10,356 bases of DNA, from UHGV virus genome UHGV-0145483. One strand, 5' to 3'. Positions 563-10,270 of this stretch are shown here, one piece after another (positions within the stretch are counted from its first letter, which is position 1; each line of letters begins with the position of its first letter). The translations under genes were made by a program, and so were the position numbers. The notes beneath the pieces are model-generated. The model worked only from the letters and a program-made list of their open reading frames with translations. It made no database searches and had not been told where the DNA came from. The DNA is from a virus.

Positions 563-928
563 ATGACCGAACGCATAGAATTTGTTTTGCCTTACCCGCC
601 GACGGTGAACACTTACTGGCGACGCCGTGGCAGCACATATTTTGTATCAAAAGCCGGGGAGCGTTATCGCCGGGCAGTGGCGCTTATTGTTCGCCAGCAG
701 CGGCTGAAATTAAGCCTGTCCGGAAGGTTGGCAATAAAAATTATTGCAGAACCACCGGATAAGCGCCGCCGTGACCTGGACAATATTCTGAAAGCACCGC
801 TGGATGCGCTTACGCATGCGGGGTTGTTAATGGACGATGAGCAGTTTGATGAAATCAATATTGTACGTGGTCAGCTTGTTCTTGGTGGTCGGCTGGGTGT
901 GAAGATTTACAAAATTGAGAGTGAGTGA
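563..928 (+). CDS. rusA: RusA Holliday-junction resolvase (crossover junction endodeoxyribonuclease)
   Basis: 121 aa; N-terminal LPYPPTVNTYWRRRG and central PDKRRRDLDNILKAPLDAL with catalytic Asp cluster match the RusA family; position immediately upstream of the antiterminator is typical. Confidence 0.85.
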   Translation: MTERIEFVLPYPPTVNTYWRRRGSTYFVSKAGERYRRAVALIVRQQRLKLSLSGRLAIKIIAEPPDKRRRDLDNILKAPLDALTHAGLLMDDEQFDEINIVRGQLVLGGRLGVKIYKIESE

Positions 929-936
929 GCGTAAAT

Positions 937-1464
937 ATGATATATCCGGAAATTACAGGCAAAAGCGGCGAACATTTACGCCTGAACACGCTGGAAGCAG
1001 TCTGGATCCAGGGGAAATTACGGATGTGGGGGCGGTGGTCGTATATCGGTGGGGGTAAATCCGGAAATATGTTTAACCGGTTACTGGTTTCGAAAAAGCT
1101 GACGAAAACAGCAGTTAATGAGGTTTTACGCAGAATGAAGAAATCCGGGCTGGAAAAACCGGAACTTGAGGCATTTTTTCGGGATATGACCAGAGGGAAG
1201 CAGAAGAGCTGGTTGTCACATTGTACAGACACAGAGGCGTTGATTATTGATCGCGTTATCAGTGAGGTGCTTGGGGAATATCCCGGACTAATCAATATTC
1301 TCCGGCAAAGGTACGAAGGACGGGGAATGAGCAAACTGAAAATGGCCGAAAGGTTAAATGCAGATCATCCTGAGTGGACGTTGGTTACGTGCAGACGCCG
1401 AATTGATCAGTGGTTGCGTATGGCTTTTGTTACAGAGAAAAAAATGTTGCAAACTGATCAATAA
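937..1464 (+). CDS. Q: Late-gene antiterminator Q (non-lambda Q family)
   Basis: 175 aa from ATG 937 (SD gagtgag 7 nt upstream; alternative GTG 925 overlaps the rusA stop). Sits between rusA and a short leader ending in an intrinsic terminator, the canonical Q/PR-prime/tR-prime arrangement. Family assignment is by position and size, not by a verified alignment. Confidence 0.7.
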   Translation: MIYPEITGKSGEHLRLNTLEAVWIQGKLRMWGRWSYIGGGKSGNMFNRLLVSKKLTKTAVNEVLRRMKKSGLEKPELEAFFRDMTRGKQKSWLSHCTDTEALIIDRVISEVLGEYPGLINILRQRYEGRGMSKLKMAERLNADHPEWTLVTCRRRIDQWLRMAFVTEKKMLQTDQ

Positions 1465-1558: not shown

Positions 1559-1681
1559 GTGTCCGTAATATACAGCAGCGCAATAAATTCGCTGGTGGTT
1601 ATTAATACCGTTCTTTCAGCTTGCTGGCTTTTTCGACAAGAGTTATTGGTGTGTCACGTTAACCGGAAAAGGGAAAAAGAC

Positions 1682-1879
1682 ATGCTGAAACAGCAGGATA
1701 TGACCGAAACCGCCAGAGTGGTGTTTAATGAATTAAGCGTCACCGAACCGGCGACAGTCGGGGAGATTGCACAGAATACGTACCTTTCACGCGAACGCTG
1801 TCAGTTAATACTGACCCAGCTTGTTATGGCGGGGCTGGCAGACTATCAGTTCGGTTGTTACAGACGCCTTCCGCAGTGA
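1682..1879 (+). CDS. Small hypothetical protein (65 aa), possible winged-helix DNA-binding fold
   Basis: ATG 1682 preceded by aaaagggaaaaag; the longer ORF from 1559 would start inside the terminator T-run. Segment VGEIAQNTYLSRERCQLILTQLVMAGLADY resembles a wHTH recognition helix and wing. Stop overlaps a terminator hairpin. Confidence 0.5.
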   Translation: MLKQQDMTETARVVFNELSVTEPATVGEIAQNTYLSRERCQLILTQLVMAGLADYQFGCYRRLPQ

Positions 1880-1889
1880 AGGCTTTTTT
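1866..1889 (+). terminator. Intrinsic terminator overlapping the stop of the small ORF
   Basis: GCCTTC (1866-1871), 6-nt loop, GAAGGC (1878-1883), then TTTTTT 1884-1889. Confidence 0.5.
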
Positions 1890-1978
1890 ATTTGTGGTAA
1901 ATGGGCGGCTGGTGGGTGTTAGGGGCACTCACCAGCCATCTGCTCATGCGTCCGGATCACAAGCAAACCTCAGGCCCA

Positions 1979-1997
1979 CTGCTTTGCGCAAAAGCAG
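1979..1997. promoter_or_regulatory. Near-perfect palindrome upstream of the methyltransferase gene, candidate operator
   Basis: CTGCTTTGCGCAAAAGCAG is self-complementary apart from a 1-nt offset, centred on GCGC, about 35 bp upstream of ATG 2030. A 12-bp stem hairpin GGCTGGTGGGTG/CACTCACCAGCC lies at about 1908-1938. Confidence 0.3.
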
Positions 1998-2029
1998 AAT
2001 GAGCCTATCAGAGACAGGCTTAATGATCC

Positions 2030-3088
2030 ATGCTTAATACTGTAAAAATATCCAGTTGTGAGTTAATCAACGCCGACTGCCTGGAATTTATCCGGTCGTT
2101 ACCCGAAAATTCTGTTGACCTGATAGTCACGGACCCGCCGTACTTTAAAGTGAAGCCTGAGGGCTGGGATAACCAGTGGAAGGGCGACGATGATTACCTG
2201 AAATGGCTGGACCAGTGTCTGGCGCAGTTCTGGCGGGTGCTGAAACCTGCCGGAAGTCTTTACCTGTTCTGTGGCCATCGCCTGGCATCTGATATCGAAA
2301 TCATGATGCGTGAACGCTTCAGTGTGCTGAACCATATTATCTGGGCGAAGCCGTCCGGACGCTGGAACGGGTGCAACAAGGAAAGCCTGAGGGCGTATTT
2401 CCCCGCCACAGAGCGCATTCTGTTCGCGGAACATTATCAGGGGCCGTATCGCCCGAAAGATGCCGGGTATGAGGCGAAGGGCAGGGCACTGAAACAGCAT
2501 GTGATGGCCCCGCTGATTTCTTACTTTCGTGATGCGCGTGCTGCCCTGGGGATAACGGCAAAACAGATAGTGGATGCCACAGGAAAGAAAAACATGGTGT
2601 CGCACTGGTTCAGTGCCAGCCAGTGGCAGCTACCGGACGAAAGCGATTATCTGAAATTACAGGCGCTGTTTGCCCGGGTGGCAGAAGAGAAGCATCAGCG
2701 GGGTGAACTGGAAAAGCCCCACCACCAGCTGCTGGAGACGTATACTTCACTGAACCGGCAGTATGCGGAACTGCAGAGTGAATATAAGCATCTGCGGCGG
2801 TATTTTGGCGTAACTGCGCAGGTGCCGTACACGGATGTGTGGACGCATAAACCGGTGCAGTACTATCCCGGGAAACATCCGTGCGAAAAACCGGCAGAAA
2901 TGCTGCAGCAGATAATCAGTGCGAGCAGTCGTCCGGGTGACCTGGTTGCAGATTTCTTCATGGGGTCAGGTTCGACAGTCAAAGCAGCGATAGCGCTGGG
3001 ACGTCGTGCAACTGGCGTTGAGCTGGAGACTGAGCGTTTTGAGCAGACGGTCAGGGAAGTTCAGAATTTAGTCAGTCAGAACGGATGA
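2030..3088 (+). CDS. DNA amino-methyltransferase, beta class (N6-adenine or N4-cytosine)
   Basis: 352 aa; catalytic motif IV DPPY (IVTDPPYF) near the N-terminus and AdoMet motif I FxGxG (DFFMGSGST) near the C-terminus, the permuted order of beta-class amino-MTases. No adjacent restriction endonuclease is visible, so it looks orphan. Confidence 0.85.
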   Translation: MLNTVKISSCELINADCLEFIRSLPENSVDLIVTDPPYFKVKPEGWDNQWKGDDDYLKWLDQCLAQFWRVLKPAGSLYLFCGHRLASDIEIMMRERFSVLNHIIWAKPSGRWNGCNKESLRAYFPATERILFAEHYQGPYRPKDAGYEAKGRALKQHVMAPLISYFRDARAALGITAKQIVDATGKKNMVSHWFSASQWQLPDESDYLKLQALFARVAEEKHQRGELEKPHHQLLETYTSLNRQYAELQSEYKHLRRYFGVTAQVPYTDVWTHKPVQYYPGKHPCEKPAEMLQQIISASSRPGDLVADFFMGSGSTVKAAIALGRRATGVELETERFEQTVREVQNLVSQNG

Positions 3089-3128
3089 TATTGCAGGATT
3101 AGTTACGTACCGTTATTATCCTGCGCCC

Positions 3129-3204
3129 GGCCCTTTAGCTCAGTGGTGAGAGCGAGCGACTCATAATCGCCAGGTCGCTGGTTCAAATCCAGCAAGGGCC
3201 ACCA
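3129..3204 (+). tRNA. ileZ: tRNA with CAU anticodon, Ile2 (lysidine)-like
   Basis: Manual cloverleaf: acceptor GGCCCTT/AAGGGCC, D-arm TAGCTCAGTGG...GAGC, anticodon loop CTCATAA, T-loop GGTTCAAATCC, encoded CCA at 3202-3204. Close to E. coli ileX as recalled. Confidence 0.85.
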
Positions 3205-3211
3205 TCACATA

Positions 3212-3288
3212 CCGCCATTAGCTCATCAGGATAGAGCGCCAGCCTTCGAAGCTGGTTGCGCGGGGTTCGAGTCCTCGATGGCGGTCCA
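3212..3288 (+). tRNA. argN: tRNA-Arg, anticodon UCG (reads CGA)
   Basis: Manual fold: acceptor CCGCCAT/ATGGCGG (C1:G72), D-stem GCTC/GAGC, anticodon stem CCAGC/GCTGG with loop CTTCGAA, T-loop TTCGAGT, encoded CCA at 3286-3288. Gene name follows Stx-phage convention and is not verified. Confidence 0.75.
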
Positions 3289-3301
3289 TTATCGGTATTC
3301 T

Positions 3302-3378
3302 GCGTTGTTAGCTCAGCCGGACAGAGCAATTGCCTTCTAAGCAATCGGTCACTGGTTCGACTCCAGTACAACGCGCCA
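3302..3378 (+). tRNA. argO: tRNA-Arg, anticodon UCU (reads AGA/AGG)
   Basis: Manual fold: acceptor GCGTTGT/ACAACGC, D-stem GCTC/GAGC, anticodon stem ATTGC/GCAAT with loop CTTCTAA, T-loop TTCGACT, encoded CCA at 3376-3378. Confidence 0.8.
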
Positions 3379-3443
3379 CACTTATTTTTTTCTGGCTTGC
3401 TTCGGCGGGCCTTTTAGTTGCTGAAAAAGAAAACACCAGGTGG

Positions 3444-3476
3444 TTAGCAGGGTATCCGTTACCCTGCTAAATTTTT
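3444..3476 (+). terminator. Intrinsic terminator downstream of the tRNA cluster
   Basis: Perfect 11-bp stem TTAGCAGGGTA/TACCCTGCTAA (3444-3454 with 3460-3470), 5-nt loop, then TTTTT 3472-3476. Confidence 0.55.
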
Positions 3477-3691
3477 AAATACCTCACAATTCAGCAAGTT
3501 GATGATTGTCTGGCTGTCAGGGATTTTGTTAAAAAAATCCTGCATGGTGAATCCCCCTGAGCGGAGGGGCGACTGGTGACGGTATAATCTCTGATTATCA
3601 AAACGAGAATGACGCGGGTTTAGTGGCACCGGGCTGAACTCACCGGGAGGCACCCGGCACCATGTTCATGGTGATACAGAAATGCGGCTTC

Positions 3692-3716
3692 AGCCCCTCT
3701 CCGGAGGGGCTTTCTT
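3692..3716 (+). terminator. Intrinsic terminator, + strand
   Basis: 8-bp stem AGCCCCTC/GAGGGGCT with TCCG loop, followed by TTCTT. Confidence 0.45.
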
Positions 3717-3722
3717 ATGGAC

Positions 3723-3750
3723 AAAAAAGCCCGCGCTGGGAGACGCGGGC
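3723..3750 (-). terminator. Intrinsic terminator, - strand, back-to-back with the + strand one
   Basis: 7-bp stem GCCCGCG/CGCGGGC (3729-3735 with 3744-3750), 8-nt loop; A6 at 3723-3728 on + gives a U-run after the hairpin on the - strand. Confidence 0.4.
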
Positions 3751-3944
3751 GGCAAGGAATAAACAATAAAACGTGAAGTAATATTTCAGCTGGCGAATAA
3801 TACCCCATAGTAATCACTCTGCGCAACTGCGCGGCCTTTTTCGTATTGCGGGCTGTAGTCTCCCTTCTGCCATTGTCCTGTAACTTCCGGACTTCAGCCC
3901 GTTCCCTCATCTGACTCACAACATTATCCCGACCGGGAGGATTC

Positions 3945-5927
3945 ATGACATTTAAACACTACGATGTGGTCAGGGCGGCGTCGCCGTCAGACCTTGCGGA
4001 GCGACTGACACAAAAACTGAAGGAGGGGTGGCAGCCATTTGGCAGCCCTGTCGCCATCACGCCTTATACCCTGATGCAGGCCATTGCGGCGGAAGGTGAT
4101 GTCACCACACCGGTGGTGGTGCAACCGTCGGGTGATGGTGGCGCTGTTATCAGCACCACCAGCGAACCGGAATATTACTTTGTCATTGCGCTGGCCGGGC
4201 AGTCCAACTCGATGTCTTTTGGCGAGGGGCTGCCGCTGCCGGAGACATATGACCGTCCGGACCCGCGTATTAAACAGCTGGCGCGTCGCAGTACGGTGAC
4301 GCCGGGTGGTGCCGCCTGTAAATATAACGACATCATTCCGGCAGACCACTGTCTGCATGATGTGCAGGATATGAGTAACCTGAATCATCCTCATGCAGAC
4401 CTGAGTAAGGGACAGTACGGTTGTGTGGGGCATGCTCTGCATGTTGCCAAAAAGCTGCTGCCGTTTATGCCTGCGAATGCGGGTATCCTTCTTGTTCCAT
4501 GTGGCCGTGGCGATTCGGGATTTACTGCGGGGGCCGAGGGGGCGTTTAACGAAGCGTCGGGAGCGACCGCAGGCTCGTCCCTGTGGGGGGCGGATAAACC
4601 GCTGTATCATGACCTGGTCAGCAGAACCCGTGCGGCCCTGAAGAAAAATCCGAAGAACGTGCTGTTATCAGTGATCTGGATGCAGGGAGAAAAAGATGTC
4701 AGTTCGGGGAGACATGCAGAACACAATGCGCTTTTCCTTGCCATGGTAAATCAGTTCCGTACGGAACTGGCAGATGTGGCAGAGCAGTGTACTGGCGGGA
4801 CAACGGCCAGCGTCCCGTGGATTTGCGGTGATACCACGTACTACTGGAAGGAAAGGTATGCAGCGCCGTATGAGGCGGTTTACGGTGGGTATAAAGGCAA
4901 AGCTGCGCAGAATATTCACTTTGTGCCGTTGATGACGGATGAGCATGGTGCGAATGTGCCGACAAACGAGCCGTCAGAAGATCCGGACATTATCACGGCG
5001 GGATACTATGGTGCCGCGTCACGCAGTAATGGTAACTGGACGACAGCCGATCGTAAAACGCACTTCAGCTCCTGGGCGCGAAGAGGCATTGTTTCAGATC
5101 GGCTGGCAGGAGAGATACTGGTGCGAGCCGGGCGTTTGCTGCCGTTCCTGAGCGGGCAGTCTGCACCGCTGGCGACCACGCCAGCCTCCACGGGGGATGC
5201 ACAGTCTGGCTCTGCGGGTCAGACGCAACAGCAGGGTGCAGGTACTTCTGCAGGCGGTCATACTGAAGCCGTAACAAGAATGGTGGCCGGATATGATGCG
5301 AACAGTGGCAGTGGTGTATGGACAGAGCAGCAGTGGAATGCGTCCGGTGGTAAAGGCACTGTGACGGATGACAGTGGCAGGAAGGCGCTGCGACTGGAAA
5401 AACAGCCGGGTAAACTGACCTCCTGGAAGATGTTCCGTACTGTTGCGGTGGAGGAGGCAAAAAATCTTCTCAGCAAGGGGGGTGAAATTGCCGTACGGTT
5501 CAAAATTCCGGATGGAAGCGAACTGGTGAACGGACAGTTTGTCTTTGGTCTCTACTGGCCGGTGTCGCAGTGGGCGTCAGGCGCGGCAGCAAACAGTATG
5601 CTGGCATCATTCTTCCTTCAGACGGATGCATCAAATCTGAATCTTATGCACCACAAGGGCACGTCGAATGCACAACTGGGTACATTTGGTGCGTTTGACC
5701 ATAACTGGCATACGGTTGTTTTCCGCTTTGCGGGAAATAACAGCGAAAGAGTCGTTCCGGTGATTGATGGTACAGAGCAGACGGCGTTTGACCTTGTGAT
5801 GTGGACAAATGATGGCTTTACAGCAGATACGCTGACGCTGACAGATATCACGGGGGCAAAAGCGACGTATCCGGTACTGCTTGATACGGTCACAGTCAAA
5901 GTTAACGAAAGCCGGGCATCATCATAA
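3945..5927 (+). CDS. nanS-p: Prophage sialate O-acetylesterase NanS-p family (DUF1737 N-domain, SGNH esterase, C-terminal beta-rich domain)
   Basis: 660 aa; SD gggagg 4 nt before the ATG. N-terminal MTFKHYDVVRA...EGWQPFGSPV matches the DUF1737-type domain of phage NanS-p proteins; SGNH block I FVIALAGQSNSMSFGEG carries the catalytic Ser; a Ser/Gly/Thr/Gln-rich linker (about aa 400-440) precedes the C-terminal domain. Position matches the gene that follows stx in Stx phages. Confidence 0.85.
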   Translation: MTFKHYDVVRAASPSDLAERLTQKLKEGWQPFGSPVAITPYTLMQAIAAEGDVTTPVVVQPSGDGGAVISTTSEPEYYFVIALAGQSNSMSFGEGLPLPETYDRPDPRIKQLARRSTVTPGGAACKYNDIIPADHCLHDVQDMSNLNHPHADLSKGQYGCVGHALHVAKKLLPFMPANAGILLVPCGRGDSGFTAGAEGAFNEASGATAGSSLWGADKPLYHDLVSRTRAALKKNPKNVLLSVIWMQGEKDVSSGRHAEHNALFLAMVNQFRTELADVAEQCTGGTTASVPWICGDTTYYWKERYAAPYEAVYGGYKGKAAQNIHFVPLMTDEHGANVPTNEPSEDPDIITAGYYGAASRSNGNWTTADRKTHFSSWARRGIVSDRLAGEILVRAGRLLPFLSGQSAPLATTPASTGDAQSGSAGQTQQQGAGTSAGGHTEAVTRMVAGYDANSGSGVWTEQQWNASGGKGTVTDDSGRKALRLEKQPGKLTSWKMFRTVAVEEAKNLLSKGGEIAVRFKIPDGSELVNGQFVFGLYWPVSQWASGAAANSMLASFFLQTDASNLNLMHHKGTSNAQLGTFGAFDHNWHTVVFRFAGNNSERVVPVIDGTEQTAFDLVMWTNDGFTADTLTLTDITGAKATYPVLLDTVTVKVNESRASS

Positions 5928-5932
5928 CCGGC

Positions 5933-5969
5933 AAAAAAAGCCGCCAGCGGCAGGAACGGAAGCTGGCGG
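5933..5969 (-). terminator. Minus-strand terminator-like hairpin just after the nanS-p stop
   Basis: A7 (5933-5939) then 8-bp stem CCGCCAGC/GCTGGCGG (5941-5948 with 5962-5969) around a 13-nt loop; only on the - strand does a U-run follow the hairpin. Confidence 0.3.
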
Positions 5970-6066
5970 AGGTAATCCCAATGGAGAATGTAAAGAAAAG
6001 ATGCTTTCGTATATCGGTTTTTTAAATGAAAACAGTTCTCATTGTCAACCATAACGGTAAGAAACT

Positions 6067-6249
6067 ATGACATTTGTTCATCAGGTGATGCTGTACTTCT
6101 GTACGGCAGTCTGTGTTATGTATCTTCTTTCGGGTGGGTACAGGGCAGTGCGCGATTTCTGGCGCAGGCAGATTGATAAAAGGGCCGCAGAGAAAATCAG
6201 TGCCAGTCAGTCAGCCGGAAGCAAACCTGAAGATCCGCTCATTCCGTAG
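6067..6249 (+). CDS. Hypothetical small membrane protein (60 aa)
   Basis: ATG 6067 with weak SD-like ggtaag; N-terminal hydrophobic segment VMLYFCTAVCVMYLL followed by a basic C-terminus. No family recognised. Confidence 0.3.
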   Translation: MTFVHQVMLYFCTAVCVMYLLSGGYRAVRDFWRRQIDKRAAEKISASQSAGSKPEDPLIP

Positions 6250-6286: not shown

Positions 6287-6577
6287 ATGTCAGAAATAAA
6301 ATCGCTGGTCACTGCTGAGGCAGTGAAGGAAGTCCTGCGCTCTGAAGAAGTCCGGAGCGCACTGAAACAGCAACTTCGGCAGAACCTTGAGGCGCGTCTT
6401 GATGCAGAAGTGGATGCCATTCTGGATGAATTGCTTGGTGCACAGCCGGAACCATCCCCGGAACTGCTTCCGGAACCACAGGCGGAAGATGTCACCACGG
6501 AAAATGGTGATATTCAGCCGGAGCCACCGGTGACGGATATGACAGACACACAACCCGAACCGGGCACAATGCTGTAA
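6287..6577 (+). CDS. Hypothetical highly acidic protein (96 aa) with Pro/Glu-rich C-terminal tail
   Basis: ATG 6287; about 22 Asp+Glu versus 7 Lys+Arg; N-terminal predicted helix, C-terminus with three QPEP repeats. Consensus -35 TTGACA at 6258-6263 upstream and a strong terminator immediately downstream. Confidence 0.55.
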   Translation: MSEIKSLVTAEAVKEVLRSEEVRSALKQQLRQNLEARLDAEVDAILDELLGAQPEPSPELLPEPQAEDVTTENGDIQPEPPVTDMTDTQPEPGTML

Positions 6578-6588
6578 CGGCGGGGCAG

Positions 6589-6623
6589 GGCCATCAGTAA
6601 AACACTGATGGCCTTTTTTATTT
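6589..6623 (+). terminator. Strong intrinsic terminator between the acidic ORF and the holin
   Basis: Perfect 10-bp stem GGCCATCAGT/ACTGATGGCC (6589-6598 with 6604-6613), 5-nt loop, then TTTTTT 6614-6619. Confidence 0.6.
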
Positions 6624-6653
6624 CCGGTAGCACAGGTCTGTCGGGGCGGGGAT

Positions 6654-6869
6654 ATGTATCAGATGGAAAAAATATCAACGGGCATAGCCTATGGTACTTC
6701 TGCGGGCAGTGCGGGTTACTGGTTTCTACAGTGGTTGGATCAGGTTACTCCGTCACAGTGGGCTGCTATCGGGGTTTTGGGGAGCCTGTGTCTGGGGTTC
6801 CTGACATACCTGACGAATCTGTATTTCAAGATTAAAGAAGACCGGCGCAAACCTGCGCGGGGAGAGTAA
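6654..6869 (+). CDS. S: Class II holin, phage 21 S (pinholin) family, dual-start
   Basis: 71 aa [31 protein letters not shown]...[17 protein letters not shown] closely matches the S21 pinholin as recalled; two in-frame starts at Met1 (6654) and Met4 (6663); two TM segments; stop 5 nt before the endolysin start. Confidence 0.85.
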
Positions 6870-6873
6870 GCTG

Positions 6874-7407
6874 ATGAGCAGGAAACTCCACTATGGTTTA
6901 TCGGTAGCCGTTCTGGCGCTGATTGCCACAGGTGCTTCTGCGCCTGAAATCCTCGACCAGTTTCTTGACGAAAAAGAAGGTAACCACACCACGGCATACC
7001 GTGATGGTGCGGGGATCTGGACCATCTGCCGTGGTGCCATCATGGTGGATGGCAAACCTGTCGTTCCGGGCATGAAGTTGTCGAAGGAAAAATGCGACCA
7101 GGTTAACGCCATTGAGCGTGATAAAGCGCTGGCGTGGGTGGAGAAAAACATCAGAGTGCTGCTGACCGAACCCCAGAAAGCGGGGATCGCGTCATTCTGT
7201 CCGTACAACATTGGTCCCGGTAAGTGTTTCCCGTCGACGTTTTATAAACGAATTAATGCAGGCGATCGCAGGGGGGCGTGTGAGGCGATTCGCTGGTGGA
7301 TTAAGGACGGTGGCAGAGACTGCCGTATTCGCTCAAACAACTGTTACGGTCAGGTATCCCGTCGCGACCAGGAGAGTGCGCTGGCGTGCTGGGGAATTGA
7401 CAGATAA
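6874..7407 (+). CDS. R: SAR endolysin (phage lysozyme / muramidase, GH24, R21-like)
   Basis: 177 aa; SD ggagag; N-terminal weakly hydrophobic Gly/Ala-rich signal-arrest-release segment LSVAVLALIATGASAPEIL; T4-lysozyme-like catalytic E...D...T spacing in EGNHTTAYRDGAGIWT; directly follows the pinholin. Confidence 0.85.
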   Translation: MSRKLHYGLSVAVLALIATGASAPEILDQFLDEKEGNHTTAYRDGAGIWTICRGAIMVDGKPVVPGMKLSKEKCDQVNAIERDKALAWVEKNIRVLLTEPQKAGIASFCPYNIGPGKCFPSTFYKRINAGDRRGACEAIRWWIKDGGRDCRIRSNNCYGQVSRRDQESALACWGIDR

Positions 7408-7892: not shown

Positions 7893-8389
7893 ACATAAAC
7901 CGAATGCTTTCCGCGTTTATCGTTATTCTGCTGGTGGCCTGTGGAGCGCTGTGGATGGCAACAGACCATTACCGTGATAACGCGATTACCTACAAAGCGC
8001 AGCGCGATAACAAAGCCAGTGAACTGAAGCTGGCGAACGCAACCATTACTGATATGCAGGTGCGCCAGCGCGATGTTGCTGCGCTCGATGCAAAATACTC
8101 GAGGGAATTAGCCGATGCGAGAGCTGAAAATGAAACTCTTCGCGCTGACGTTGCCGCTGGTCGTAAGCGCCTGCGTATCAACGCCACCTGTCCAGGTCCC
8201 GTGCGTGAAGCCACCGGCACCGCCCGCGTGGATAATGCAACCGGCCCCAGACTGGCAGACGCCGCTGAACGGGATTATTTCATCCTCAGAGAACGGTTGA
8301 TGACAATGCAGAAGCAGCTGGAAGGGGCGCAGGAATATATCCGCACTCAGTGCACTAAGCTGGCTTTTTATTATCCGGAGAATGCATGA
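7889..8389 (+). CDS. Rz: Rz inner-membrane spanin (i-spanin)
   Basis: 166 aa from GTG 7889 (alternative ATG 7904); N-terminal TM then [44 protein letters not shown], near-identical to lambda Rz as recalled. Confidence 0.85.
8115..8300 (+). CDS. Rz1: Rz1 outer-membrane lipoprotein spanin (o-spanin), embedded in Rz in the +1 frame
   Basis: 61 aa; SD gaggga; signal peptide with lipobox LVVSAC; Pro-rich mature part [27 protein letters not shown] matches lambda Rz1. Confidence 0.8.
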
Positions 8390-9050: not shown

Positions 9051-9416
9051 ATGGCTCAGCTTCGTACACTCCAGAGCAGAATCAAAACACTGAATACCCG
9101 ACGGGTGAATATTCTGAAGGGGGAGCAGCGTCGTGTCAGTGGCAGTGCACGTGTTTCCCTCAAGCGTCATATCTGGCTGAGGGACGCCGGGCAGTGCTGT
9201 ATCTGTGGTCGTGTGGTTGACCTCTGTGACAGTGAACTCGATCACCGAATTGCACTTCAGTTCGGTGGTGGTAATGAGGAGACGAATCTCTGGACGCTCT
9301 GTACCGAATGCCATCGACAAAAGTCTGCTCGTGAAGCGGCGGGTGGTATGCCGGACCCGACGCTGCCGGAGGTGTCCGGAGGTAGTGGCAGAGCGGACGA
9401 CATCATCGGACTGTAA
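9051..9416 (+). CDS. HNH endonuclease (phage packaging-associated)
   Basis: 121 aa; motifs CCICGR...DLCDSELDHRIALQFGG...NLWTLCTECHRQK give two Cys pairs plus HN...H; sits directly upstream of the terminase genes as in HK97-like packaging modules. Confidence 0.8.
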   Translation: MAQLRTLQSRIKTLNTRRVNILKGEQRRVSGSARVSLKRHIWLRDAGQCCICGRVVDLCDSELDHRIALQFGGGNEETNLWTLCTECHRQKSAREAAGGMPDPTLPEVSGGSGRADDIIGL

Positions 9417-9706: not shown

Positions 9707-10270
9707 GTGCTGACAACACAAAAACGAAAATTTGCGCTGGCGCTCATGTCCGGGAAAAACAAAACAGCGTCAGCCATTGCCGCCGGTTATTCGGCGAAGA
9801 CCGCCAGGGTTAAAGGCTCACAGCTGGCAAAAGATCCGGAGGTGCTCGCGTTTATAGCCCGTAAACAGTGCGAAACGGTGGAGGTGGATGAGGTTCCTGT
9901 TTACCGGCAGAAAAAATCAGAGCAGGAGGATAAACCCCGTCGCCGTGAGGCGGCTGCAATACCACAGCCGGACGAAAACAATCCGGAGATGCCACCGTCC
10001 GCGGTGATGTCTCCTGGTATTGAATATATGGAGGATGGTCTTCCCGATCCGGTGAAAGCCATGGGGCGGATCCTGGTGGAAAACCTCTGCATTGATCCGA
10101 AACTGGCACTGGATGCGGCCTGGCGTCTGGCGCAGTTCACGCACCATAAAAAAGGGGATACCGGGAAAAAATCGGCAAAAGGTGATGCCGCGAAAAAAGC
10201 GGCTAACCGTTTTGCGGTGCCACCGCCACCCCGACTGGTGGTGAATAACGATAATGAGGGCAACGGATGA
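9707..10270 (+). CDS. Terminase small subunit
   Basis: 187 aa from GTG 9707 (SD gggaggagg; alternative ATG 9746); N-terminal KRKFALALMSGKNKTASAIAAGYSAKTARVKGSQLAKDPEV is the HTH signature of small terminase subunits; stop overlaps the next start (ATGA). Confidence 0.7.
   Translation: MLTTQKRKFALALMSGKNKTASAIAAGYSAKTARVKGSQLAKDPEVLAFIARKQCETVEVDEVPVYRQKKSEQEDKPRRREAAAIPQPDENNPEMPPSAVMSPGIEYMEDGLPDPVKAMGRILVENLCIDPKLALDAAWRLAQFTHHKKGDTGKKSAKGDAAKKAANRFAVPPPPRLVVNNDNEGNG

Follow-up and report, generated by a model that had tools for sequence, protein, structure and literature searches.

Toxin-free nanS-p among the late genes of a lambdoid prophage: an ordinary esterase allele on a backbone to which stx is optional cargo

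Why would a prophage carry a sialic acid esterase gene, nanS-p, when no toxin gene accompanies it? The locus considered here lies in the UHGV virus genome UHGV-0145483, a stretch of 10,356 nucleotides (hereafter, the window) that is an entire metagenome contig with 3.3x coverage; all features described below are on its + strand. An earlier note on this DNA had proposed that the esterase is retained beside an empty toxin slot for a nutritional benefit to the bacterial host. The locus bears on whether NanS-p serves the host through nutrition, the phage through capsid display in mucus, or both.

The gene occupies positions 3945..5927 including the stop codon, an exact reading frame of 660 aa that begins with ATG. 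A ribosome-binding site, GGGAGGA (3935..3941), was read from the sequence 3 nt 5′ of the start codon, and both site and start codon are kept in 933W, Stx2_95, and PhiR12_1. The protein contains three domains. First, residues 3 to 50 (3951..4094) form a DUF1737 domain (Pfam, E = 1.3e-15). Second, residues 74 to 395 (4164..5129) form a NanS-like SGNH/SASA catalytic domain, within which Pfam placed SASA at residues 151 to 276 (E = 4.5e-10) and a sequence search of the PDB matched residues 74 to 392 to NanS/YjhS (3pt5; E = 2.2e-114). Third, residues 448 to 654 (5286..5906) form a C-terminal lectin-like jelly-roll domain, DUF6645, which was matched over those same residues by the NanS-p C-terminal domain 6yp6 in the PDB search (E = 1.1e-48) and at residues 509 to 617 by Pfam (E = 7.5e-33). 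The proposed sugar site of this last domain keeps its four aromatics (F532, Y537, F557, and F625). All three Pfam matches exceeded curated cutoffs, the ORF and its domain matches are far beyond what chance would produce, and together these searches confirmed that the protein is of the three-domain NanS-p type, as had been claimed from the letters alone. A search of the protein against NCBIfam returned no meaningful family. The protein is 93 to 95% identical to the representatives of two 90% clusters with 928 and 1,498 members, and the catalytic domain of its subtype is approximately 69 to 74% identical to those of other NanS-p subtypes. The ORF is very probably an intact, ordinary NanS-p allele with a predicted esterase function; the NanS-p family comprises the sialate O-acetylesterases carried by lambdoid E. 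coli prophages.

The catalytic blocks are consistent with this assignment. Block I is GQSN (residues 85 to 88), in which the predicted nucleophile Ser87 (codon at 4203..4205) aligns with the serine in the GQSN block of 3pt5, and block V is RKTH, in which the predicted catalytic histidine His373 (codon at 5061..5063) aligns to the histidine of SSHFSS in 3pt5. The alignment offsets agree with Ser19/His301, which we take to be the catalytic dyad of NanS. A QGE-x-D motif is found at residues 247 to 251. Across full-length homologues, G85, Q86, S87, N88, G248, E249, R370, and H373 were invariant (114/114), D251 was present in 113, and Q247 was present in 99. The block II context differs, reading PCGRGDSG in the window versus PCCRGGSA in 933W and NanS. 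A check for catalytic Ser, His, and Asp had been suggested: the serine and histidine are present and invariant, while the aspartate of a DxxH motif is absent and is not a feature of the family. Its absence refutes nothing, because block V of NanS and NanS-p is R-x-x-H (here R370-x-x-H373), with RSSH, RASH, and RPTH as published variants (PMC10462455).

Comparison with the PhiR12_1 allele revealed 81.5 synonymous and 37.5 nonsynonymous differences, corresponding to a dN/dS of 0.13 overall; the catalytic and C-terminal domains each give 0.12. By this measure, nanS-p appears to be under purifying selection.

The domains are joined by two linkers. Linker 1 (residues 51 to 73; 4095..4163; pLDDT <50) carries the motif VTTP right after DUF1737. 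An [ST][ST]P motif was found immediately behind DUF1737 in 112 of 114 homologues, near the cleavage site proposed for phage phi24B. Linker 2 (residues 396 to 447; 5130..5285) has a pLDDT of 19 to 31. Our AlphaFold model was poor (25-sequence alignment, mean pLDDT of 67, pTM of 0.48) and was used solely for linker disorder and for confidence in the C-terminal domain. Both points made in the note about linker 2 held. It is of low complexity, with G8, A8, T7, Q6, and S5 among the 44 residues at about 404 to 447, and its length is hypervariable, ranging from 30 to 63 residues between fixed anchors across the 114 homologues. Tandem Repeats Finder detected no DNA tandem repeats in positions 3900 to 6000, which rules out repeat slippage as the source of this variation; it arises instead from allele replacement and divergence. 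The linker 2 of the window is not unique and recurs in KY176 and PhiR12_1. We also considered [ST][ST]P as a general two-site cleavage signature. This was rejected since the motif is conserved after DUF1737 but occurs in linker 2 of only 47/114 homologues (a frequency of 0.52 among distinct sequences versus a shuffle expectation of 0.34).

The surroundings of the gene are those of a lambdoid late region. The gene order is Q, methylase, three tRNAs, cargo slot, STnc100, nanS-p, DUF1378, DUF826, holin, lysozyme, and Rz. This order recurs in annotated E. coli prophages that lack stx, and Stx phages have the same order plus stx2AB; the late region of the window is collinear with those of 933W and other Stx phages. 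As in Stx phages, nanS-p is located after an ileZ-argN-argO-type tRNA trio (3129..3378), consisting of a CAU-anticodon tRNA (ileZ in the 933W annotation), Arg-UCG, and Arg-UCU, which marks the upstream edge of the cargo slot (3379-3944).

The description of this slot as an empty toxin slot proved to be half right. Searching the window by tblastn with Stx2A and Stx2B gave a best E value of 0.49, which is noise, so the window contains neither an stx gene nor a remnant of one, and recent decay of stx in place is rejected. Relative to the Stx2 phage Stx2_95, blastn identity was 96% up to position 3415 and similarity resumed at 3484, meaning that a 68-bp segment (3416..3483) occupies the position at which Stx2_95 has 1,340 bp containing stx2AB. 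The slot is not empty, as it holds an STnc100-family sRNA gene (3513..3722; Rfam RF02076) that spans model positions 1 to 206 of 206, scores 158.8 bits against a gathering threshold of 47 (E = 2e-36), and has a terminator hairpin at 3692-3711. Downstream of it is a conserved leader (3815..3944) with a terminator-like hairpin and U run (3819-3834). Although AsxR sits at the equivalent place of the slot in 933W, neither AsxR nor AgvB had an Rfam match in the slot of the window at E values up to 1. STnc100 was directly 5′ of nanS-p in all five comparison loci (933W, Stx2_95, L002, L003, and PhiR12_1), whether or not the phage carries a toxin. The cargo differs by locus: stx2, TerB with DUF3927, a TolA-like gene, or another STnc100 unit, with no additional cargo in the remaining case. 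We conclude that nanS-p and STnc100 belong to a conserved late-region backbone and that the stretch from the tRNAs to STnc100 accepts various alternative cargoes, of which stx is only one.

Toxin-free copies of the gene also turned out to be the rule. Using megablast against 5,426 complete E. coli genomes, we found nanS-p at 10,050 places in 3,119 genomes, with up to 16 to 18 copies per genome. In comparison, stx was found at no more than 1,103 places in 759 genomes, making toxin-free loci approximately tenfold more numerous than stx loci. Active nanS-p alleles have already been published from non-Stx prophages (PMC8065619, PMC10462455). Retention without a toxin, which had been presented as a special state, is therefore that of the majority. 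Because stx is optional cargo upstream of a conserved STnc100/nanS-p/lysis backbone, toxin-free nanS-p is the default rather than a relic, and it needs no special explanation. This corrects the framing of the question.

Late transcription through the slot and nanS-p probably depends on the late antiterminator Q (DUF1133/Phage_antitermQ; 925..1464), as suggested by the lambdoid arrangement and by published data on induction (PMC10462455, PMC8065619). In the stretch that separates the tRNAs from the ORF, we found three terminator-like hairpins on the + strand and no + strand sigma-70 consensus in a simple scan that a weak lysogen promoter could escape, a combination that fits dependence on Q-modified polymerase. 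For other alleles, co-induction of nanS-p with late genes has been published (PMC10462455, PMC8065619), with mitomycin C raising nanS-p by 1 to 2.4 logs (PMC10462455). Upon prophage induction, then, Q antitermination would let transcription from pR′ extend across nanS-p together with the other late genes. The N terminus (MTFKHYDVVRAASPSDLAERL) reads without a hydrophobic stretch and makes up the DUF1737 domain. Since the protein appears to have no signal peptide, it would exit at holin/endolysin lysis, with the P21-type holin (6654-6869) and lysozyme (6874-7407; together 6654..7407) as the presumed route. Outside the cell, Ser87 and His373 would strip 9-O-acetyl groups off sialic acids in mucin glycans, and the C-terminal lectin-like domain would direct the enzyme to its substrate. 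The Neu5Ac so produced could feed surviving sibling lysogens, and DUF1737 may anchor the enzyme to the capsid, as it does in phi24B gp84. For the NanS-p of the window, the expression, the lysis-dependent release, and the substrate are all inferred.

One explanation is that the esterase is kept as a food gene for the host, with de-O-acetylation of Neu5,9Ac2 making mucin sialic acid usable and selection acting independently of toxin. We regard this as quite possible, if somewhat short of an even chance. In published experiments, alleles from EDL933 and O104:H4 have esterase activity on Neu5,9Ac2 and on O-acetylated mucin glycans, and alleles from Stx and non-Stx prophages alike encode active esterases with which growth on Neu5,9Ac2 is possible (PMC8065619; see also PMC10462455). 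The purifying selection on the gene and its 16 to 18 copies in some genomes are in line with such a benefit. In addition, two chromosomal prophages have an intact nanS-p along with lysozyme, terminase, capsid, or portal genes flagged as frameshifted, but many such flags may be sequencing or assembly errors, so we do not rely on them. Other observations are less favorable. The gene is in a late operon behind several terminators and its product seems to lack a signal peptide; therefore, the producing cell would die and any benefit would be a public good shared among kin. A chromosomal nanS is already present in most E. coli, a distant search finding matches in 4,932 of 5,426 genomes, and a phage function predicts purifying selection equally well. 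The content of the window cannot tell host benefit from phage benefit. Nutritional benefit is a published hypothesis for other alleles that does not follow from this sequence. The gene sits in a late lysis operon, no signal peptide is apparent, and a capsid-decoration role of DUF1737 has been demonstrated for phi24B gp84.

A second explanation is that NanS-p is primarily a virion protein: DUF1737 would attach to capsid hexons and present the esterase and lectin domains at the surface, where they would aid the phage in binding to O-acetylated mucus, in crossing it, or in reaching hosts. The gene would then be retained as a component of the phage. We hold this possibility tentatively, and it is compatible with nutrition. 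In phi24B, cryo-EM and proteomics identified gp84 as an abundant capsid-decoration protein that is full length on fresh virions and self-processed later; a DUF1737 hexamer in the central hexon pores is the capsid-binding module, and a tyrosine "tooth" (Tyr42) on its anchor loop enters the pore (bioRxiv 10.64898/2026.04.10.717836). Among 12 phages and prophages, which are not independent, DUF1737 type tracked the head module. The DUF1737 type of the window (94 to 100% identity) occurred with 645-aa protease-capsid heads (n = 7) and lambda gpE-type heads (n = 2), while types with 63 to 67% identity occurred with a 674-aa head (n = 1) and 933W-type heads (n = 2). The intervening holin and lysozyme genes were equally similar in 12/12, and the catalytic and C-terminal domains shuffled independently of DUF1737. 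The near-universal [ST][ST]P motif after DUF1737 also favors virion function.

Nevertheless, several results argue against the same explanation. The window protein shares its first 76 residues, at 100% identity, with KY176 and PhiR12_1, and this one N terminus is paired with two capsid proteins that share no sequence similarity (BLASTP, E = 0.39). The anchor loop of the window is three residues shorter than that of 933W and phi24B, with the Tyr42 of 933W falling in an alignment gap and Y41 lying unaligned to it in the shortened loop. The second proposed cleavage motif is missing from most alleles, physical linkage may account for an association among 12 non-independent genomes, and the sole experiments come from a preprint whose subject is a podovirus with another kind of head. 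Extending the virion function to a rule on the basis of this association and the phi24B preprint, such that lambdoid phages in general would display the NanS-p enzyme on their capsids, with DUF1737 matched to head type, and NanS-p would not be an added host-benefit gene, strikes us as rather unlikely. If it were true, DUF1737 of the window type would serve 645-aa protease-capsid and lambda gpE heads, other types would serve 933W-type and 674-aa heads, and toxin-free retention would simply reflect virion function in mucus. The association between DUF1737 and head type suggests a cheap, large-scale test of host versus phage benefit.

Two further explanations both fare poorly. That nanS-p is a neutral passenger or decaying remnant of a defective prophage, intact by accident, is very improbable: many E. 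coli prophages are defective and related loci have pseudogenized lysis and head genes, but the 1,983-bp frame is intact, the invariant residues of the catalytic blocks are all present, dN/dS is low, and the other late genes in the window (Q, holin, lysozyme, Rz, HNH, and terS) are intact. We give equally little credence to the toxin-free junction being an artefact in which low-coverage assembly merged similar prophages and missed an stx operon. The 3.3x coverage would allow it, and identity to PhiR12_1 runs along the gene from 100% to 85 to 90% and back to 100%, a mosaic that could reflect natural recombination or a chimeric assembly. Yet complete genomes share the stx-free layout of methylase, tRNAs, STnc100, and nanS-p, one of them (H44) matches positions 3000 to 6100 as a single collinear piece, and stx loci are outnumbered by toxin-free ones.

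The chromosomal NanS (YjhS, 3PT5), a member of the nan regulon, consists of a single domain and has a signal peptide for export. Its catalytic domain is homologous to residues 74 to 392 of the window protein, which differs in having DUF1737 and a lectin-like domain in addition, in being prophage-borne, and in apparently having no signal peptide.

A characterized relative is the NanS-p of 933W (L0105/z1466), which is the same as phi24B vb_24B_21/gp84 and whose C-terminal domain was solved as 6YP6. Both proteins have the three domains, the catalytic blocks, and the sugar-site aromatics, and both genes are placed after STnc100 and before holin/lysozyme in a presumably Q-dependent late region. Like the 933W protein, that of the window appears to have no signal peptide. 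The two alleles share 62% identity over DUF1737, 69% over the catalytic domain, and 44% over the C-terminal domain. Unlike 933W, the window has no upstream stx, its linker 2 is approximately 20 residues longer and of different composition, and its phage has an HNH/terS-type packaging module instead of the podovirus head.

A recent preprint described the arrangement PasD/STnc100, sialic acid esterase, PasA/PasC, holin, and lysozyme, with less than 3% of chromosomal PasA loci adjoining stx (bioRxiv 10.64898/2026.05.13.724894). The window resembles this layout in having STnc100 directly 5′ of the esterase and holin and lysozyme 3′ of it. The interval from nanS-p to holin is occupied in the window by DUF1378 and DUF826 ORFs. 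The gene family, its activity, its occurrence outside Stx phages, its domain and allele diversity, the sRNA-esterase-lysis layout, and the nutritional hypothesis are already known.

Alleles of the same subtype occur in stx-free E. coli prophages and phages as the "SASA family carbohydrate esterase," for example, WP_151326941.1 (JNEC-KY176) and XSB41609.1 of PhiR12_1. Like the window allele, they are 660 aa long; DNA identity is 92 to 95%, DUF1737 and linker 1 match exactly, and linker 2 and the neighbors are shared. Some features differ from the window: the slot of KY176 has two tandem STnc100 units instead of one, and PhiR12_1 has a lambda-type head and lacks the methylase and the tRNAs.

The window is a complete metagenome contig (ENA ERZ505422 NODE_3241; 10,356 bp; coverage, 3.3), and its content is that of the late region of an Escherichia coli-type lambdoid prophage. 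Genes for a DUF968/NinG-like protein (26-562), RusA (563-928), antiterminator Q (925-1464, plus strand), and an N6/N4 DNA methylase (2030-3088) are followed by three tRNA genes (3129-3378), an interval of 566 bp (3379-3944), and nanS-p (3945-5927, plus strand; 660 codons). Downstream lie DUF1378 (6067-6249), DUF826 (6287-6577), a P21-type holin (6654-6869), a lysozyme (6874-7407), an Rz-type lysis protein (ending at 8389), an HNH endonuclease (9051-9416), and the small terminase (9707-10270). The Q protein is of the DUF1133 type with 179 aa; published Q classes of Stx2a phages have 126, 144, or 273 aa, and similarity to the Stx2a phage Stx2_95 starts only downstream of Q, at 1584. The tRNA gene at 3129-3204 (plus strand) was called tRNA-Met (anticodon CAT) by ARAGORN, while the identical gene is ileZ, a tRNA-Ile reading AUA, in the Stx phage 933W and tRNA-Ile in RefSeq. 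Between the DUF826 open reading frame and the holin gene (6578-6653, plus strand), there is a strong terminator-like hairpin (6587-6615; 12 pairs and a T run); the sRNAs PasA and PasC of related prophages have been reported from the equivalent interval (bioRxiv 10.64898/2026.05.13.724894).

The coordinates and length of the nanS-p reading frame in the earlier note were exact, and its observation is confirmed by domains, structural matches, catalytic residues, sugar-site counterparts, and linker composition. Pfam placed DUF1737 at residues 3-50, SASA at 151-276, and DUF6645 at 509-617, all above the curated cutoffs. Residues 74-392 matched the NanS/YjhS structure 3pt5 (E = 2.2e-114), and residues 448-654 matched 6yp6, the solved NanS-p C-terminal domain (E = 1.1e-48). 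The GQSN block is present at residues 85-88; by alignment to 3pt5, Ser87 is its serine and His373 is the histidine of block V. A homologue search (E up to 1e-20) returned 1,558 cluster representatives, every named one from E. coli. We aligned 114 full-length homologues (111 from the search, together with the proteins of the window, 933W, and Stx2_95), among which G85, Q86, S87, N88, G248, E249, R370, and H373 were invariant. Of the proposed Ser/His/Asp triad, the serine and histidine were found, but the DxxH aspartate is not part of this family: block V reads RKTH here and R-x-x-H in NanS and published NanS-p proteins (PMC10462455), so a missing aspartate would refute nothing. For the C-terminal domain of phi24B, four aromatics have been put forward as the sugar site (Y510, Y515, Y540, and F611; PMC10462455); their counterparts here are F532, Y537, F557, and F625. 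The AlphaFold model was poor (mean pLDDT, 67), with both linkers below 50 and the C-terminal domain at 76-95. Altogether, nanS-p is an ordinary member of a known, characterized family in its usual genomic place.

The linker ahead of the C-terminal domain (linker 2, approximately residues 396-447) is of low complexity, rich in Gly, Ala, Thr, Gln, and Ser, and, as had been predicted, is a site of length variation. Between fixed anchors it spans 30 to 63 residues among the 114 homologues, with many unrelated sequences. A repeat search found no tandem repeat in the linker DNA; its variation therefore stems from allele replacement and divergence rather than slippage. Nearly the same linker as in the window recurs in E. 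coli JNEC-KY176 and the stx-free phage PhiR12_1. Immediately after DUF1737, an [ST][ST]P motif (4095-4115; residues 51-57, EGDVTTP) was present in 112 of the 114 homologues and sits next to the point at which phi24B gp84 is proposed to be cleaved (bioRxiv 10.64898/2026.04.10.717836). The corresponding motif proposed for linker 2 was found in only 47.

Beyond the observed fold, catalytic residues, domain order, late-region position, and N-terminus without a hydrophobic stretch, we infer how the enzyme would be made and used. Expression would come from Q-modified polymerase upon induction, which fits the three plus-strand terminator-like hairpins between the tRNAs and the reading frame (3394-3411, 3692-3711, and 3819-3834) and a promoter scan that found no plus-strand sigma-70 consensus there. 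Other nanS-p alleles rise by 1 to 2.4 logs with mitomycin C (PMC10462455). Because NanS-p appears to lack a signal peptide, it would presumably leave the cell through lysis by holin and endolysin. Outside, it may de-O-acetylate sialic acids, with the lectin-like domain as its guide.

To characterize how often nanS-p occurs without toxin, we surveyed complete E. coli genomes (n = 5,426). With 3000-6100 as the query, Megablast found 10,050 places distributed over 3,119 genomes, with a maximum of 16 in one genome, and a more sensitive search with the reading frame alone, which also counts chromosomal nanS, found 14,605 in 4,932. A stx2AB query, which also catches stx1 at 60 to 80% identity, found 1,103 places in 759 genomes. 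By these counts, about nine-tenths of prophage copies cannot adjoin a toxin operon. Among the complete genomes, 36 contained the allele subtype of the window at a query coverage of 80% or more, and its protein is 93 to 95% identical to cluster representatives standing for 928 and 1,498 sequences. Moreover, nanS-p is known from non-Stx prophages, where its alleles are active and allow growth on Neu5,9Ac2 (PMC8065619, PMC10462455). The window thus represents the usual, already known toxin-free state. The interpretation in the earlier note was right in part: it holds for toxin independence and the variable linker but not for special retention, the catalytic aspartate, or an empty slot.

Comparison with the PhiR12_1 allele gave a dN/dS of 0.13 for the whole gene, and the catalytic and C-terminal domains each gave 0.12; judged from these sequence ratios, nanS-p is under purifying selection. 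Identity to PhiR12_1 is mosaic (100% over approximately 3945-4125 at the 5' end and 5025-5385 in the linker region, 85 to 90% over 4305-4845), possibly through intragenic recombination or, given 3.3x coverage, chimeric metagenome assembly. In chromosomal prophages of E. coli G1/2 and S1-KEN-03-A, nanS-p is intact while flags for frameshifts or internal stops fall on the genes for lysozyme, large terminase, capsid, and/or portal, which could reflect preferential retention or just error-prone assemblies.

Two explanations for why nanS-p is kept, neither novel, stand about equal and can coexist. It has been hypothesized that the esterase benefits the host nutritionally. Experiments with other alleles support this (PMC8065619, PMC10462455), although the window sequence cannot establish host feeding, and the benefit would go to kin because the producing cell lyses. 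Alternatively, NanS-p could be a virion protein whose DUF1737 is a docking module matched to the head. Virions of phi24B carry gp84 in abundance; the protein is full length when the virions are fresh and undergoes self-processing later, and its DUF1737 domain assembles into hexamers within the central pores of the capsid hexons (bioRxiv 10.64898/2026.04.10.717836). Comparing the region at 3945-4094 across 12 phages and prophages, we found that window-type DUF1737 (94 to 100% identity) accompanies a 645-aa protease-capsid head in seven cases and a lambda gpE-type head in two cases, and that types at 63 to 67% identity accompany a 674-aa head in one case and a 933W-type head in two. Similarity in the holin and lysozyme genes lying between was uniform across the 12, and reassortment of the catalytic and C-terminal domains is independent of DUF1737. 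DUF1737 type thus tracks the head module, as head-matched docking would yield. However, these 12 are a small, nonindependent sample, an identical 76-residue N-terminus occurs with two capsid proteins without detectable sequence similarity, and the tyrosine-bearing anchor loop is 3 residues shorter in the window than in 933W.

The interval between the tRNAs and nanS-p, described earlier as an empty toxin slot, holds a full-length STnc100 sRNA (3513-3722, plus strand; Rfam RF02076; 158.8 bits; gathering score, 47). Identity to Stx2_95 is 96% over 1584-3415, and similarity restarts at 3484; the intervening 68 bp stand where the phage has 1,340 bp carrying stx2A and stx2B. Tblastn with Stx2A/B found no stx remnant in the window (best E = 0.49), so the toxin is absent without a trace of in-place decay. 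At the site corresponding to approximately 3379-3512, between the tRNAs and STnc100, three other genomes carry TerB and DUF3927, a TolA-like gene, or stx2AB, making it a cargo hot spot. Abutting the STnc100 3' end, a strong minus-strand terminator (3750-3729; GCCCGCGTCTCCCAGCGCGGGC, then a T run) lies within 3723-3800. In 933W the equivalent position is occupied by the anti-sRNA AsxR (3485-3537 of that locus, minus strand), but the window sequence differs and has no AsxR or AgvB match there. Conserved in both Stx2_95 and PhiR12_1, this sequence may encode an uncharacterized convergent sRNA.

STnc100 is likewise the immediate upstream neighbor of nanS-p in 933W (where it separates stx2B from L0105, the NanS-p gene), Stx2_95, two stx-free E. 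coli prophages, and PhiR12_1, a phage that lacks both the tRNAs and stx. The 130 bp ahead of the nanS-p start are conserved in all of these. This leader (3815-3944, plus strand), near-invariant among 933W, Stx2_95, PhiR12_1, and the window, contains the hairpin and U run at 3819-3834 and may be regulatory. In contrast to the window, which has a single STnc100 unit in the compared region 3390-3722, the two stx-free prophages each have two tandem copies (L002, 4330-5022; L003, 4511-5126); the single copy looks like a product of recombination between two units, or else those prophages carry a duplication. STnc100, nanS-p, the small reading frames, and the lysis genes form a conserved backbone, immediately preceded by a site where the cargo varies. 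The same sRNA-esterase-holin-lysozyme layout was described in a 2026 preprint, where stx adjoins <3% of such chromosomal loci (bioRxiv 10.64898/2026.05.13.724894).
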